Positions 3,576 through 25,736 of a stretch of DNA of 39,315 nucleotides are shown piece after piece; positions within the stretch are counted from its first letter, which is position 1, and every line of letters starts with the position of its first letter. Made by a program: the position numbers and the translations under genes. The stretch lies in the sequence record PZ445456.1. One strand, given 5' to 3'. This stretch comes from a phage. The notes below the pieces were generated by a model. The model had not been told where the DNA came from. It made no database searches and was given only the letters and a program-made list of their open reading frames with translations.

Positions 3576-3644
3576 GTACGACATAACGTTCTTGTGAAGT
3601 CCCACACTGAAAGGGACTCGGTGCTAACAAAACTGCACTTAAAG

Positions 3645-3735
3645 CTCTTTAACAATTTGGATAATAAGCACTCTTGAGATGATGACAACAGCGATTAACT
3701 CAAGGTGACTCGAAAGAGAAGCCTTTATGATAATC
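3645..3735 (+). promoter_or_regulatory. Putative RNase III processing site upstream of gene 0.3 (R0.3-like)
   Basis: CTCTTTAACAATTTGGATAATAAGCACTCTTGAGATGATGACAACAGCGATTAACTCAAGG...CCTTTATGATAATCACT closely parallels the T7 R0.3 leader as recalled; boundaries approximate. Confidence 0.4.
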
Positions 3736-8415: not shown

Positions 8416-8422
8416 CGGAATC

Positions 8423-8445
8423 TAATACGACTCACTATTGGGAGA
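8423..8445 (+). promoter_or_regulatory. Phage RNAP promoter (phi1.1A-equivalent)
   Basis: TAATACGACTCACTATTGGGAGA, exact consensus; followed by a G9 run and an AT-rich CTTTAAG-repeat leader. Confidence 0.8.
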
Positions 8446-8512
8446 CCCTTGGGGGGGGGTTTCCCCTACTTTAAGATAACTTTAAGTTTTAACTTTAAGA
8501 GGAAACATAATC

Positions 8513-11707: not shown

Positions 11708-11895
11708 GCAACTTAAACAAAGGGTCACTTGTAAACGGTGACAAGAAGTTCTTCGCAACGGTCGAAGGCCAAGGCCAATCGTTCGAAGTACCTGTGTTCG
11801 CTGCGTCTCTTGAAGAGGCCAACGAGTTAGCTGAATGGCAGTATGTTCCGGCTGGCTTCGCAGTGACACGCATCCGTCCAGACCGAAAGGTTTAA
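11704..11895 (+). CDS. 2: Gene 2 protein, inhibitor of host RNA polymerase, 63 aa
   Basis: [57 protein letters not shown] matches T7 gp2 (MSNVNTGSL...[18 protein letters not shown]). Confidence 0.9.
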
Positions 11896-11915
11896 TAGGA
11901 CTCACTATTGGGAGA
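11893..11915 (+). promoter_or_regulatory. Phage RNAP promoter (phi2.5-equivalent)
   Basis: TAATAGGACTCACTATTGGGAGA; single mismatch at -12. Confidence 0.7.
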
Positions 11916-11964
11916 CACATCGTTTCCCGATTTTAACTTTCAGAAACTTTTAAGGAGAAACATC

Positions 11965-21930: not shown

Positions 21931-23538
21931 ATGGCAAGCTCACAGAAACGTGAAGGCTTCGCGGAGAATGGTGCCAAGGCGGTGTATGACGCATTGAAGA
22001 ACGACCGGAACTCCTATGAGACCCGTGCGGAAAACTGTGCGAAGTACACCATCCCTTCGTTGTTCCCCAAAGACTCCGACAACGCCTCTACTGACTACAC
22101 CACTCCGTGGCAAGCAGTTGGCGCTCGTGGCTTGAACAACTTGGCCTCTAAGCTCATGCTCGCTCTGTTCCCTATGCAGACGTGGATGAAGCTGACAATC
22201 TCTGAGTTCGAAGCGAAACAATTGGTTGCACAACCAGCCGAACTAGCGAAGGTCGAAGAAGGTCTCTCAATGGTCGAGCGAATCTTGATGAACTACATCG
22301 AGTCCAACTCGTACCGTGTGACACTCTTTGAGACCCTCAAGCAGTTGGTCGTTGCAGGTAACGCTCTGCTCTACATTCCTGAACCTGAAGGTGCTTACAA
22401 TCCCATGAAGCTATACCGCCTGTCTTCTTATGTTGTCCAACGAGACGCATTCGGCACGGTGCTACAGATTGTAACCTTAGATAAGACTGCCTATGCAGCA
22501 CTTCCAGAAGACGTGCGAAACGCTATGGACTCCGGTCAGGAACATAAAGGCGACGAAATGATTGATGTGTACACTCACATTTATCTTGACGAAGAAACAG
22601 GAGAATACCTCAAGTACGAAGAGATTGATGGTGTCGAAGTCGAAGGTACAGATGCTTCTTATCCGGTGGACGCTTGTCCTTATATCCCGGTTCGCATGGT
22701 ACGCATTGATGGAGAATCATATGGTCGCTCTTACTGTGAGGAATACTTAGGTGACTTACGGTCCCTTGAGAACCTCCAAGAAGCTATCGTTAAGATGTCA
22801 ATGATTAGTGCAAAAGTTATCGGCTTGGTTAACCCTGCTGGTATCACACAGGTTCGTCGTTTGACCAAAGCACAGACAGGTGACTTCGTGTCCGGTCGTC
22901 CAGAAGACATCTCGTTCCTTCAGCTTGAAAAGGCCGCAGACTTCTCTGTAGCGAAAGCTGTGAGTGAACAGATTGAGGGCCGACTGTCCTATGCCTTTAT
23001 GCTTAACTCCGCTGTTCAACGTACTGGTGAGCGTGTGACTGCCGAAGAGATTCGATATGTCGCATCTGAACTCGAAGATACCCTTGGTGGTGTCTATTCG
23101 ATTCTCTCACAGGAACTTCAGTTGCCAATGGTTCGTGTCCTGCTGAAGCAACTTCAAGCGACCAATCAGATTCCTGAGTTACCGAAAGAGGCCGTTGAGC
23201 CTACTATCAGTACCGGGATGGAAGCATTGGGTCGTGGTCAAGACCTCGATAAGCTGGAACGCTGTATTGCTGCGTGGTCTGCGCTGGCTCCTATGCAGGG
23301 AGACCCGGACATCAACATTGCGACCATTAAGTTGCGCATTGCGAACGCTATCGGCATCGACACTTCTGGTATCCTCAAGACACCTGAAGAGAAACAACAG
23401 GAGATGGCTGAGGCTGCTCAAGGTACTGCACTGGAGAACGCTGCTGCATCTGCTGGTGCTGGTGCTGGTGCACTTGCTACTGCAAGCCCTGAGAACATGC
23501 AAGCTGCTGCTGAACAGGCTGGAATGGTTCCAAATTAA
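21931..23538 (+). CDS. 8: Head-to-tail connector (portal) protein, 535 aa
   Basis: Full-length collinear match to T7 gp8 (YTIPSLFPKDSDNASTDYTTPWQAVGARGLNNLASKLMLALFPMQTWM, LGDLRSLENLQEAIVKMSMIS, TGERVTAEEIRYVASELEDTLGGVYSILSQELQLP). Confidence 0.97.
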   Translation: MASSQKREGFAENGAKAVYDALKNDRNSYETRAENCAKYTIPSLFPKDSDNASTDYTTPWQAVGARGLNNLASKLMLALFPMQTWMKLTISEFEAKQLVAQPAELAKVEEGLSMVERILMNYIESNSYRVTLFETLKQLVVAGNALLYIPEPEGAYNPMKLYRLSSYVVQRDAFGTVLQIVTLDKTAYAALPEDVRNAMDSGQEHKGDEMIDVYTHIYLDEETGEYLKYEEIDGVEVEGTDASYPVDACPYIPVRMVRIDGESYGRSYCEEYLGDLRSLENLQEAIVKMSMISAKVIGLVNPAGITQVRRLTKAQTGDFVSGRPEDISFLQLEKAADFSVAKAVSEQIEGRLSYAFMLNSAVQRTGERVTAEEIRYVASELEDTLGGVYSILSQELQLPMVRVLLKQLQATNQIPELPKEAVEPTISTGMEALGRGQDLDKLERCIAAWSALAPMQGDPDINIATIKLRIANAIGIDTSGILKTPEEKQQEMAEAAQGTALENAAASAGAGAGALATASPENMQAAAEQAGMVPN

Positions 23539-23558
23539 TACGACTCACTAATGGGAGA
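23536..23558 (+). promoter_or_regulatory. Phage RNAP promoter (phi9-equivalent)
   Basis: TAATACGACTCACTAATGGGAGA; overlaps the gene 8 stop codon. Confidence 0.75.
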
Positions 23559-23614
23559 GACAATACGTCCTCCCTTTGAGTTCAACTTTATGAAATCTAA
23601 AGGAGATAACAATT

Positions 23615-24526
23615 ATGGCTGGTGAATCTAACGCTGACGTATACGCATCTTTTGGTGTGAACTCTGCGGTTGTTGGTGGGTCTACTCCTACTGAACACGA
23701 ACAGGCTATGCTTGAACTCGATGTTTCTGCCCGTGACGGCGATGATGCAATCGAGCTAGTTAGCAACGATGACCCTTATGGCAATCCAGACCCATTCGGT
23801 GAAGAGGATGAGAGTCGTACTGAGATTCGCATCTCCACTGATGGTGAACCTGAAGTAACCGAAGAAGGTGAAATCGACTATGAAGGAACCGAAGATGAAG
23901 GCTCCGAAGAGTTTGAACCAGTTGGTGACGTTCCAGATGAACTGAACGAAGCCTCAAGTCAACTCGAAGAGCACGAAGCTGGTTTCGAAGAGATGGTCAA
24001 TCAGGCTGCTGAACGTGGTCTGTCAGAAGAAACCATCGTGCGCATCCAACAGGAATACGGAGAGGACGGTCTGTCTGAAGAGTCTTACGAAGAGTTAGCC
24101 AAAGCTGGTTACTCCAAGTCGTTTGTTGACTCCTACATCCGTGGTCAGGAAGCACTGGTAGAACAGTATGTTCAGTCCGTTATGGAGTACGCTGGCGGTG
24201 AAGCACAGTTCCAAGCAATCTACAATCATCTCGAAGTGTCCAACCCGGATGCTGCTGAGTCTCTGATTAGTGCATTGGAGAACCGTGACCTCGCAACAGT
24301 TAAAGCTATCGTGAATCTCGCTGGTGCAAGCCGTGCGAAGACTTTCGGTAAACCTGCTGCCCGTAGTATCTCTAAACGTGCTGTACCTGCTGCGCCTGTA
24401 CGTGCCAAACAGTCTGGCTTTGAGTCACAGGCTGAGATGATTGCTGCAATGTCTGACCCTCGCTATCGCCACGACAGTAAGTTCCGTGCGGAAGTTGAGC
24501 GTAAGATGATGTACAGTCAGTTCTAA
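23615..24526 (+). CDS. 9: Capsid assembly (scaffolding) protein, 303 aa
   Basis: ESNADVYASFGVNSAV, acidic Glu/Asp-rich centre, SYIRGQEALVEQYV, NRDLATVKAI.NLAG.SRAK, MSDPRYR match T7 gp9. Confidence 0.95.
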   Translation: MAGESNADVYASFGVNSAVVGGSTPTEHEQAMLELDVSARDGDDAIELVSNDDPYGNPDPFGEEDESRTEIRISTDGEPEVTEEGEIDYEGTEDEGSEEFEPVGDVPDELNEASSQLEEHEAGFEEMVNQAAERGLSEETIVRIQQEYGEDGLSEESYEELAKAGYSKSFVDSYIRGQEALVEQYVQSVMEYAGGEAQFQAIYNHLEVSNPDAAESLISALENRDLATVKAIVNLAGASRAKTFGKPAARSISKRAVPAAPVRAKQSGFESQAEMIAAMSDPRYRHDSKFRAEVERKMMYSQF

Positions 24527-24528
24527 AT

Positions 24529-24551
24529 TAATACGACTCACTATTGGGAGA
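24529..24551 (+). promoter_or_regulatory. Phage RNAP promoter (phi10-equivalent, major capsid promoter)
   Basis: TAATACGACTCACTATTGGGAGA, exact consensus; predicted start at G24546. Confidence 0.85.
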
Positions 24552-24604
24552 CACATCCAGATTGAGTGAGGTCTGGTCTGAAGGTTCGAGTCCTTCGTGT
24601 TTCC
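24548..24604 (+). other. tRNA-like structured element in the gene 10 mRNA leader (acceptor-like stem, one 5-bp hairpin, canonical T-arm; no D-arm)
   Basis: GAGACAC (24548-54) pairs with GTGTTTC (24597-603) as a 7-bp stem; CCAGA-ttgagtgagg-TCTGG (24557-76); GAAGG-TTCGAGT-CCTTC (24580-96), a canonical T-stem/T-loop. Not a standard tRNA. Confidence 0.4.
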
Positions 24605-24692
24605 TTTGAGTGATACACAATGAGAACCAACTCGTTTCAAGTAGTACCTCACATTTAAACTTTTATCATAAATCAACAGAAGGAGATTCAAC

Positions 24693-25736
24693 ATGGCTAA
24701 CATGAATGGTGGACAACAGATGGGTAAAGACCAAGGTAAAGGCATGAGCGCTGGTGATAAACTGGCTCTGTTCCTGAAGGTCTTCGGTGGTGAAGTTCTG
24801 ACTGCATTTACCCGTACCTCCGTAACTATGAACAAACACCTTGTGCGTTCTATTCAGTCCGGTAAGTCCGCGCAGTTCCCTGTGCTGGGTCGTACCAAAG
24901 CTGCTTACCTGCAACCGGGTGAGAACCTCGATGACAAACGTAAAGACATGAAGCACACTGAGAAGACCATTAACATTGATGGTTTGCTGACTGCTGACGT
25001 TCTGATTTACGACATCGAAGACGCAATGAACCACTATGACGTGCGTTCTGAGTACACTGCACAGTTGGGCGAGTCTCTGGCTCTGGCTGCTGATGGCGCA
25101 GTTCTGGCTGAAATGGCTAAGCTGTGTAACCTCCCGGCTAAAAACAACGAGAACATCGCTGGCTTGGGTACTGCAAGTGTTCTGGAAGTTGGTGAAGCAG
25201 CTACGCTTCAGGGCGACCAAGTGAAGCTGGGTCAGGCAATCATCGCACAGTTGACTCTGGCTCGTGCACGTCTGACTAAGAACTATGTTCCGTCTGCTGA
25301 CCGTACCTTCTACACGACTCCTGATAACTACTCCGCGATTCTGGCTGCTCTGATGCCTAACGCTGCAAACTATCAGGCACTGATTGACCCGGCAACTGGT
25401 TCTATCCGCAACGTAATGGGCTTTGAAGTTATCGAAGTTCCACACTTGACCGCTGGTGGTGCTGGTGAAGACCGTCCAGAAGAAGGCGCTAACCCGACTG
25501 ATCAGAAACATGCGTTCCCTGAGACAGCTAGTGGTGACACTAAGGTTGCTCTGGATACCGTTGTCGGCCTGTTCTGCCACCGCTCTGCCGTTGGTACTGT
25601 GAAGCTGAAAGACATGGCGCTGGAACGTGCTCGTCGTGCTAACTATCAGGCTGACCAGATTATCGCTAAGTACGCGATGGGTCACGGTGGTCTGCGCCCT
25701 GAAGCTGTAGGTGCGCTGGTTTTCAAAAAGGCTTAA
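24693..25736 (+). CDS. 10A: Major capsid protein 10A, 347 aa
   Basis: Full-length match to T7 gp10A (GGQQMG, GDKLALFLKVFGGEVLTAF.RTSVT, SGKSAQFPVLGRT, LTADVLIYDIEDAMNHYDVRSEYT.QLGESLA, AILAALMPNAANY.ALIDP..GSIRNVMGFEV.EVPHLTAGGAG, IIAKYAMGHGGLRPEA). Confidence 0.98.
   Translation: MANMNGGQQMGKDQGKGMSAGDKLALFLKVFGGEVLTAFTRTSVTMNKHLVRSIQSGKSAQFPVLGRTKAAYLQPGENLDDKRKDMKHTEKTINIDGLLTADVLIYDIEDAMNHYDVRSEYTAQLGESLALAADGAVLAEMAKLCNLPAKNNENIAGLGTASVLEVGEAATLQGDQVKLGQAIIAQLTLARARLTKNYVPSADRTFYTTPDNYSAILAALMPNAANYQALIDPATGSIRNVMGFEVIEVPHLTAGGAGEDRPEEGANPTDQKHAFPETASGDTKVALDTVVGLFCHRSAVGTVKLKDMALERARRANYQADQIIAKYAMGHGGLRPEAVGALVFKKA

Follow-up and report, generated by a model that had tools for sequence, protein, structure and literature searches.

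A conserved tRNA-like module at the 5' end of phage-polymerase transcripts in T7-like phages

The leader of the major capsid mRNA was analysed in a T7-like phage (Berlinvirus, Studiervirinae) from sequence record PZ445456.1, a stretch of 39,315 nucleotides that is referred to here as the window and that in this region is 98.8% identical to the Salmonella phages vB_CECAV_058 and JSS1 and to the E. coli phage P483. At the very start of the RNA made from the late promoter phi10, positions 24546-24605 form a three-way junction composed of an outer stem of 8-9 bp, a hairpin CCAGA/TCTGG and a T arm. Comparison with relatives showed, from the pattern of sequence change, a self-contained RNA in which purifying selection maintains an acceptor/T-arm stack and an elbow like those of tRNA, and we consider this identification and its structure very highly probable. 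Across the phages analysed the module always stands at the 5' end of a phage-polymerase transcript (promoter +1/+2), in one copy per genome, and it can be exchanged among the phi2.5, phi9 and phi10 leaders as well as from one genus to another. The original prediction, made from the letters of the window alone, had proposed that the capsid mRNA begins with a three-way junction containing a canonical T arm; both the folding and the comparative analysis confirm this observation, and its interpretation is partly supported.

Results

Fold of the 5' end of the capsid transcript

When positions 24546-24610 were folded, the minimum free energy (MFE) structure and the centroid were both the three-way junction, with -24.5 kcal/mol, 59% of the ensemble and a z score of -2.29; 6 of 200 shuffled sequences were as stable. 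The z score of the whole 165-nucleotide leader was -0.01, and the T-arm core GGTTCRANNCC was present three times in the window against 0.6 expected. The lone sequence is only marginally beyond chance, and it is the comparative evidence that puts the module far beyond it.

The outer, acceptor-like stem of the MFE fold is made by the 5' strand GGGAGACAC (24546-24554; this and all other parts are on the plus strand) and the 3' strand GUGUUUCC(U) (24597-24605), with eight Watson-Crick or G.U pairs and a possible terminal G.U. Two junction nucleotides, AU (24555-24556; 0-2 nucleotides across the family), lead into hairpin 1 (24557-24576), in which CCAGA (24557-24561) pairs with UCUGG (24572-24576) around the 10-nucleotide loop UUGAGUGAGG; G24570 and G24571 in this loop are the analogues of tRNA G18 and G19. 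A hairpin 1 lengthened by two U.G pairs, as drawn in the MFE fold, was dropped, since T7-type members are unable to form these pairs. The linker UCU (24577-24579), 2-3 nucleotides long in all members, occupies the position of the variable-loop region and is followed by the T arm (24580-24596), formed by GAAGG (24580-24584), the loop UUCGAGU (24585-24591) and CCUUC (24592-24596), with C24587 as the analogue of C56. This arm has a 5-bp stem closed by G-C and a 7-nucleotide loop with U at positions 1 and 2, a purine at position 4 and A at position 5. The T stem adjoins the 3' strand of the outer stem without a spacer, giving an acceptor plus T stack of 13-14 bp in the window type and of 12-13 bp in T7 and T3.

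The late promoter phi10 (TAATACGACTCACTATTGGGAGA, 24529-24551, plus strand, assigned from the sequence) reads as TAATACGACTCACTATT followed by GGGAGA, with +1 at G24546. Pairing starts at G24546 or G24547, that is, at promoter +1 or +2, and does likewise in all promoter-bearing homologues. The element had been drawn from 24546 to 24692; its start stands, whereas the structure stops at 24605 and the remainder is ordinary leader.

Covariation of the helices and conservation of the loops

An unbiased MAFFT alignment of ten sequences had 97.2% of its cells paired and seven pairs with double changes, and its covariation score was matched by none of 500 shuffles. RNAalifold applied to MAFFT output, independently of any hand alignment, recovered both inner hairpins with seven covarying pairs. 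A structural alignment, made by hand, took in 19 distinct sequences belonging to six genera; 98.6% of its cells were paired, and compensatory changes, which had been proposed as a check on the prediction, were clear (15 of 20 pairs); none of 500 shuffles came up to these values on any measure, a significance that such shuffles overstate given the phylogenetic relationship among the sequences, and sliding the structure by 1-3 columns left at most 56% paired. By helix, the outer stem was paired in 98.7% of cells and changed on both sides in six of nine pairs, the stem of hairpin 1 was paired in 100% with compensatory changes in all five pairs, and the T stem showed compensatory changes in three of five. 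Pairs of the G.U type, for example G24550.U24601, become C.A mismatches on the other strand and so confine the helices to the plus strand, which argues for a structure acting as RNA rather than as DNA.

In contrast to the stems, which change by compensation, loop 1, the length of the linker and the T loop are almost constant over Teseptimavirus, Berlinvirus, Przondovirus, Ningirsuvirus, Foetvirus and Pektosvirus. The loop 1 motif UUGA(R)(A)UGAG is invariant, the T loop reads U-U-N-G-A-G-U, and the GG/CC closing pairs were present in 19 of 19 aligned sequences. Over 23 distinct sequences GG/CC, U1, U2, G4 and A5 were invariant save for one U-to-C variant at U1; this is a Klebsiella-phage contig (L346, about 3611-3675) with the T loop UCCGAGU, in which the change of U54 to C was the sole departure from the T-loop consensus seen.

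These patterns bear on the idea of a neutral or selfish structural expansion, in which any stable 5' structure suffices and the likeness to tRNA is incidental. The original prediction had considered a purely structural expansion equally possible, and it is true that short hairpins substitute for the module in many relatives at no obvious cost and that GGTTCRANNCC by itself is not rare. We consider this explanation very unlikely because the loops do not drift: loops, linker and T loop are near-invariant across genera while the stems compensate, and two loop positions covary with each other, as described next.

An elbow-like pair between the two loops

G24571, which follows the invariant UGAG of loop 1, and C24587, the third base of the T loop, were complementary in 23 of 23 distinct sequences. 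The corresponding columns 28 and 44 held G:C in 10 sequences, C:G in 11 and U:A in two, with no mismatch, and the preceding G was invariant. The G:C combination is that of the window, KP32, EG1, Citrof5 and pEp12 types, C:G that of the T7, T3, S523, TVB03, Tarrare and PP81/Jarilo types, and U:A that of SRT7/P1723. Among 1,891 column pairs, this was the sole pair outside the helices with three Watson-Crick types.

In tRNA, the third base of the T loop (C56) pairs with D-loop G19, while G18, the base before it, intercalates and makes contact with base 55 (PMC4810234). A pair of the G19:C56 kind following a conserved G of the G18 kind is thus present in the module at the sequence level, and the geometry implied by G24571:C24587 is the same as that of tRNA. 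Since the end of loop 1 covaries with T-loop base 3, hairpin 1 is best read as the D-arm analogue, and the arm that is missing is the anticodon arm; the earlier description of the element as D-arm-less was therefore set aside.

Relation to tRNA, tmRNA and other tRNA-like RNAs

ARAGORN detected no tRNA and no tmRNA in the whole window, and no family of Rfam 15 matched the window leader at its gathering threshold. The best Rfam match was tRNA-Sec (20.8 bits against a gathering value of 47, E = 0.1, 35 model positions deleted), which spans acceptor, variable arm and T arm with the T arm of the module aligned to that of tRNA-Sec. Measured against a cloverleaf, the module has two internal hairpins only, and an anticodon arm or third hairpin was found in no family member. 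A discriminator and a 3' CCA are absent, the stem being followed by UUUGAG in the window, CUCUUAG in the Klebsiella phages and UGUAG in T7, and the RNA runs on into the mRNA. The module is neither a tRNA gene nor a tmRNA domain.

A remnant of a captured tRNA had also been suggested. A blastn search with the 49-nucleotide core against 5,426 E. coli genomes gave zero matches, and a pattern search through 185,579 bacterial and archaeal species yielded a single chance match, which had neither a T stem nor a tRNA; a host-captured tRNA was dropped as a candidate after these searches found no source. The broader proposal, a degenerate tRNA remnant or else a DNA-level recombination or replication signal without RNA function, could draw on the tRNA-Sec match and on the fact that T-arm-only blast matches fall on tRNA genes of unrelated phages. 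The tRNA-Sec score, however, is far under its gathering value, ARAGORN was negative, every member lacks an anticodon arm, the 5' strand of the module is the promoter's own initiating GGGAGA, and the G.U pairs would be C.A mismatches on the other strand. We regard this explanation as extremely improbable.

With canonical tRNA the module shares the 5-bp T stem closed by G-C, the 7-nucleotide T loop U-U-N-G-A-N-N with invariant equivalents of U54 and A58, the T stem adjoining the 3' strand of an acceptor-like stem, and a second hairpin whose loop gives an invariant G and a base pairing with T-loop base 3. Unlike tRNA, it lacks both the anticodon arm and a canonical 4-bp D stem, its acceptor-like stem has 8-9 bp, and it forms an mRNA 5' end from promoter +1 without discriminator or CCA. 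The tRNA-like domain of tmRNA likewise has an acceptor stem with a T arm and an analogue of the D loop, lacks an anticodon arm and is joined to coding RNA. That domain, however, is built from the two termini of the tmRNA, carries a 3' CCA, is charged with alanine and is bound by SmpB, whereas the phage module is contiguous, 5'-terminal and not chargeable. The G3:U70 alanine identity pair of tmRNA was not found, the wobble of the module being at the fifth stem pair and CCA being absent.

YrlA (Y RNA-like), a bacterial and phage-encoded RNA, mimics a T arm and an acceptor; it differs from the module as a stand-alone non-coding RNA with a Ro-binding stem, and Rfam gave no YrlA match in the window leader. 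The 3' tRNA-like structures (TLS) found in turnip yellow mosaic virus (TYMV), brome mosaic virus (BMV) and tobacco mosaic virus (TMV), and MALAT1-associated small cytoplasmic RNA (mascRNA), are also transcript-embedded mimics that preserve the elbow and diverge elsewhere. These are 3'-terminal, eukaryotic, often pseudoknotted and aminoacylatable, whereas the phage module is 5'-terminal, belongs to double-stranded DNA (dsDNA) phages of enterobacteria and is nested in a promoter-proximal hairpin. Viral TLS and tRNA mimics in long non-coding RNAs recruit host tRNA-binding machinery or RNase P/Z (PMC4810234). With 5' stabiliser hairpins (T7 phi10, ompA) the module shares a start within one base of the 5' end and a place on highly expressed messages, and it sits exactly where relatives, and the other promoters of the window, have a simple hairpin. 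It differs from them as a three-way junction with invariant loops and a tertiary pair, where simple hairpins have freely drifting tetra- to hexaloops.

Occurrence among T7-like phages

The sample, from IMG/VR and GenBank, consisted mostly of Klebsiella and E. coli phages. By blastn, about 275 phage records contained a 49-61-nucleotide element of 80-100% identity, about 250 of them Klebsiella Przondovirus (KP32-like), where the module follows gene 8 and precedes gene 9 and so opens the phi9 transcript. The same gene 8/gene 9 site was occupied in E. coli phage EG1, Citrobacter phage Citrof5, Erwinia phage pEp_SNUABM_12, the Foetvirus SRT7/P1723, Klebsiella phage TVB03 and phage Tarrare. A covariance model (R1) built from ten sequences located the module just downstream of gene 8, scoring 37 bits in T3-like phages and 23 bits (E = 2e-4) in T7, with E values from 1e-27 to 2e-3 at the phi9 position of T7 and T3-like loci, and found one copy in the window and none elsewhere there. 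The T7 phi9 leader has the same architecture, GGGAGACC-UCAUC-UUUGAAAUGAGC-GAUGA-CAA-GAGG-UUGGAGU-CCUC-GGUCUUCC. In Pectobacterium phages PP81 and PP47 and in a Jarilo-like contig, the module precedes the homologue of gene 2.5, encoding the single-stranded DNA-binding protein (SSB), behind an annotated promoter (phi2.5).

At phi10, the module was found only in the small lineage of the window (the window, P483, JSS1 and CECAV_058), and none of the sampled loci had it at phi9 and phi10 together. T7 itself has at phi10 the simple hairpin GGGAGACCACAACGGUUUCCC, as the original prediction had stated. The same prediction had treated the structure as a feature of the capsid leader alone; it is usually found one gene upstream, in the phi9 leader, where T7 carries a diverged homologue.

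A structural regular-expression search over 295 loci returned no further family members, an IMG/VR scan with a loose promoter-anchored pattern returned chance matches and true tRNAs among the matches listed, and a metagenome scan with the conserved downstream leader returned seven contigs, all of known types. Among the Przondovirus phi9 loci sampled, about 23 of 35 (some two-thirds) carried the module. Three alleles thus occur at phi9 in Klebsiella Przondovirus (loci L336, L337, L340, L344 and L361, around 3611-3700), the other two being the short hairpin GGGAGACCGAUUGGUUUCCC and a module of about 75 nucleotides, GGGAGACCGAACGUAAGACCACUCAAGCCGACC...AGUAAGUCUCC, and further long inserts in the phi9 leader were seen in other genera (L333, L354, L374 and L375).

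In two Yersinia Teseptimavirus phages, vB_Yep_9 (L037, about 385-470) and vB_Yep_15 (L377, about 140-205), hairpin 1, the T arm and the 3' strand are kept, while the phi9 promoter and the 5' strand of the module are gone; in one of the two, the annotation of gene 8 extends into the module remnant.

Replacement of the 5' hairpin at phi10

In Berlinvirus relatives the flanks of the site are identical (the promoter upstream, UUUGAGUGAUACACAAUGAGAACC... downstream) and the interior of the 5' hairpin is wholly different. Kvp1, Yepe2 and ETEP21B, in which the homologous position carries the promoter annotation phi10/phi10A, have the short hairpin GGGAGAGACAUUACGUUCUCCC, and the site holds at least three other unrelated modules of 45-85 nucleotides (phi10 alleles: loci L003-L006, L009, L011 and L020-L022). 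The stem letters differ as well, GGGAGACAC/GUGUUUCC in the lineage of the window against GGGAGAGAC/GUUCUCCC in the short version, so the entire hairpin was exchanged; the supposed insertion of about 42 nucleotides into an existing stem did not hold, since the whole 5' hairpin, stem letters included, has been replaced. The window copy and the phi9 copy of the Klebsiella phage KpV767 agree in every letter between +1 and the stem's end, and the identity ends at both edges. The swap into phi10 is best explained by a putative microhomology recombination with a co-infecting Przondovirus-like phage, through GGGAGA on the left and UUCC on the right.

The three other modules at this site, here termed B (in P694/pO103), C (in LPST144/JSS2) and D (a rod of about 85 nucleotides, in S523/BSP161/D226), were also seen outside Berlinvirus: B in Klebsiella phage MT09 and E. 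coli phage TH49, C in K1F/Kayfunavirus and Yersinia phage AP10, and D in BA14, Pectobacterium phage PP74 and Serratia phage Pila. Leaders with these alternative modules matched no family of Rfam 15, permissive E values giving snoRNA noise. Module D shows compensatory changes between D226 and S523 (CCUGUU/AACAGG against CACAG/CUGUG and CCAUGA/UCAUGG against CCCACGA/UCGUGGG; L009 447-568 compared with L011 5748-5868, minus strand) and is probably another conserved structured RNA. Module C in the phi10 leader of LPST144 (L005, 442-535) contains an AUG-initiated mini-open reading frame (ORF) of 20 codons (MSDERIASHNRRAGTFSPFE), ending at the UGA of the conserved UUUGAGUGA, that may be a chance product.

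The module of the window lies between the stop of the scaffold gene 9 (24524-24526) and gene 10 (24693-25736, plus strand), which it heads and which encodes the major capsid protein according to the ORF list and to the annotation of the 98.8%-identical relatives. The rest of the phi10 leader (24606-24692, plus strand) comprises a second hairpin (24607-24651), an A/U-rich spacer and the Shine-Dalgarno sequence AAGGAG (24680-24685), and it is identical in relatives with other modules or with the short hairpin. The second hairpin is sequence-invariant in every Berlinvirus examined, regardless of the preceding module; its predicted fold is weak (z = -1.26), and it is a possible nuclease site or translational element. 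Its reading as an RNase III site that detaches the module was rejected, given the weak fold, an invariance that leaves no covariation, and its absence from the phi9 and phi2.5 contexts.

The window contains seven occurrences of the 23-mer promoter class of phi10. Its own phi9 promoter and leader (23535-23614, plus strand) have only the short hairpin GGGAGAGACAAUACGUCCUCCC at the place where most relatives have the tRNA-like module. The phi2.5 leader of the window (11892-11940) is the short hairpin GGGAGACACAUCGUUUCCC, the stem letters of which match the outer stem of the module (GGGAGACACAU...GUGUUUCC); to judge by these letters, the two may be related, the inner hairpins having been either lost or inserted. 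A stretch of nine G (8445-8453) was also observed in the loop of the 5' hairpin that follows the promoter at 8422 (GGGAGACCCUUGGGGGGGGGUUUCCC).

Discussion

In E. coli and T7, 5'-terminal hairpins such as those of the ompA and T7 gene 10 leaders protect mRNAs from 5'-end-dependent decay. Because the genes headed by the module (SSB, scaffold and capsid) are needed in the largest amounts and its position is that of the known protective 5' hairpins, we favour a cis-acting 5' cap. A base-paired triphosphate 5' end and a compact tRNA-like fold would shield abundant mRNAs from 5'-end-dependent decay by RppH and RNase E, and the exposed elbow might be read by a tRNA-elbow-binding factor, conferring an advantage in expression over a plain hairpin. 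The reader could be the ribosome, RNase P or Z, TruB or TrmA; a phage protein that binds tRNA, for example gp5.5, is a further candidate. A tRNA-elbow mimic with such a role is the best overall explanation of the data, with about an even chance of being correct, and for the function taken separately, a cap to which the tRNA-like fold adds through an elbow-reading partner, our confidence falls somewhat short of even.

A processing signal of the 'tRNA punctuation' type would act differently: read-through RNA would be cut by RNase P at the base of the acceptor-like stem, and/or by RNase Z/BN or RNase E on the 3' side, which would part the gene 9-10, 10 or 2.5 message from upstream RNA and could free a tRNA-like RNA of about 60 nucleotides. 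T7 is not known to carry an RNase III site between R6.5 and R13, the module's 5' edge is the base of the stem in all contexts, and in the two promoter-deleted Yersinia phages the retained hairpin 1, T arm and 3' strand could be transcribed by read-through only. The conserved features (acceptor/T-arm stack, T loop and elbow pair) are, moreover, RNase P and RNase Z determinants (PMC4810234). On the other hand, primary transcripts begin at +1, so that a 5' cut would be superfluous, the Yersinia deletions have also taken the 5' strand that RNase P requires, and the module has no CCA or discriminator and, in the window type, a stack of 13-14 bp. We consider processing an unlikely role.

A third reading is that of a trans-acting decoy or sponge, in which the elbow mimic titrates a host tRNA-binding factor (RNase P, a modification enzyme, or a defence nuclease or toxin that targets tRNA) or engages a phage tRNA-binding protein, the module being an interchangeable RNA 'cargo'. 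The presence or absence of the module and its polymorphism in near-identical phages, with at least five alternative modules at the site and each of them shared between genera, are typical of accessory, host-dependent functions; the strict conservation of the loops and the single module per genome at varying promoters also agree with this idea, as does the reported binding of tRNA, together with H-NS, by T7 gp5.5. Against it, the products of genes 2.5, 9 and 10 are each required in very large quantity, in keeping with a role in cis, and we know of no defence system that recognises only acceptor, T arm and elbow. A decoy or sponge in trans appears unlikely to us. The same low probability is given to a more general proposal, that T7-like phages use the apex of the 5' hairpin of their strongest transcripts to display interchangeable RNA modules, of which the elbow mimic, as a trans decoy or recruiter for a tRNA-elbow-reading factor, would be the most widespread.

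Several points weigh against a tRNA-elbow mimic acting as a 5' cap in cis. With regard to the elbow, the split between G:C and C:G largely tracks clades, only two independent switches are certain (C:G in the single-purine loop class and U:A in the AA loop class), columns 4 and 34 of the same alignment show clade-driven pseudo-covariation, and the hand alignment was made with the structure in mind. The acceptor plus T stack has 13-14 bp against 12 in tRNA, and no CCA follows. With regard to function, many close relatives carry just a short hairpin at the same promoters and unrelated modules share the site, so the module is dispensable and may be of use under certain conditions instead of stabilising generally; a single copy in each genome, behind promoters that vary, would suit a trans role equally well. 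Everything that goes beyond structure and conservation is inference.

Mimicry of tRNA by viruses is known; what is new here is a 5'-terminal elbow mimic without an anticodon arm, nested in a promoter-proximal hairpin of a dsDNA phage. In the full-text literature no paper was found that describes a tRNA-like phi9, phi10 or phi2.5 leader in T7-like phages, older subscription literature lying outside this search, and it seems that tRNA mimicry by the phi9-type leader has so far gone unrecognised. A catalogue of 2023 with 10,006 anonymous candidate phage RNAs, in which candidates upstream of a T7-type capsid gene are mentioned, may contain the module, but offers no interpretation (PMC10690425).

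Work on phage gene expression takes T7 and its relatives as the reference system, and standard expression vectors derive from them. The module could serve as a natural, portable 5' stabiliser or as a handle for RNA expression. If the reading as a decoy or recruiter were true, the module would be an RNA-level determinant of host takeover or counter-defence, horizontally exchanged between phage genera. The occurrence of several unrelated conserved modules at one nested site, exchanged across genera, suggests a general 'leader cassette' system. That a compact elbow mimic of about 60 nucleotides at the 5' end is clearly kept by purifying selection, and has moved among transcripts for SSB, scaffold and capsid, suggests that lytic phages have a layer of post-transcriptional control, or of interaction with the host, that is still unexplored.

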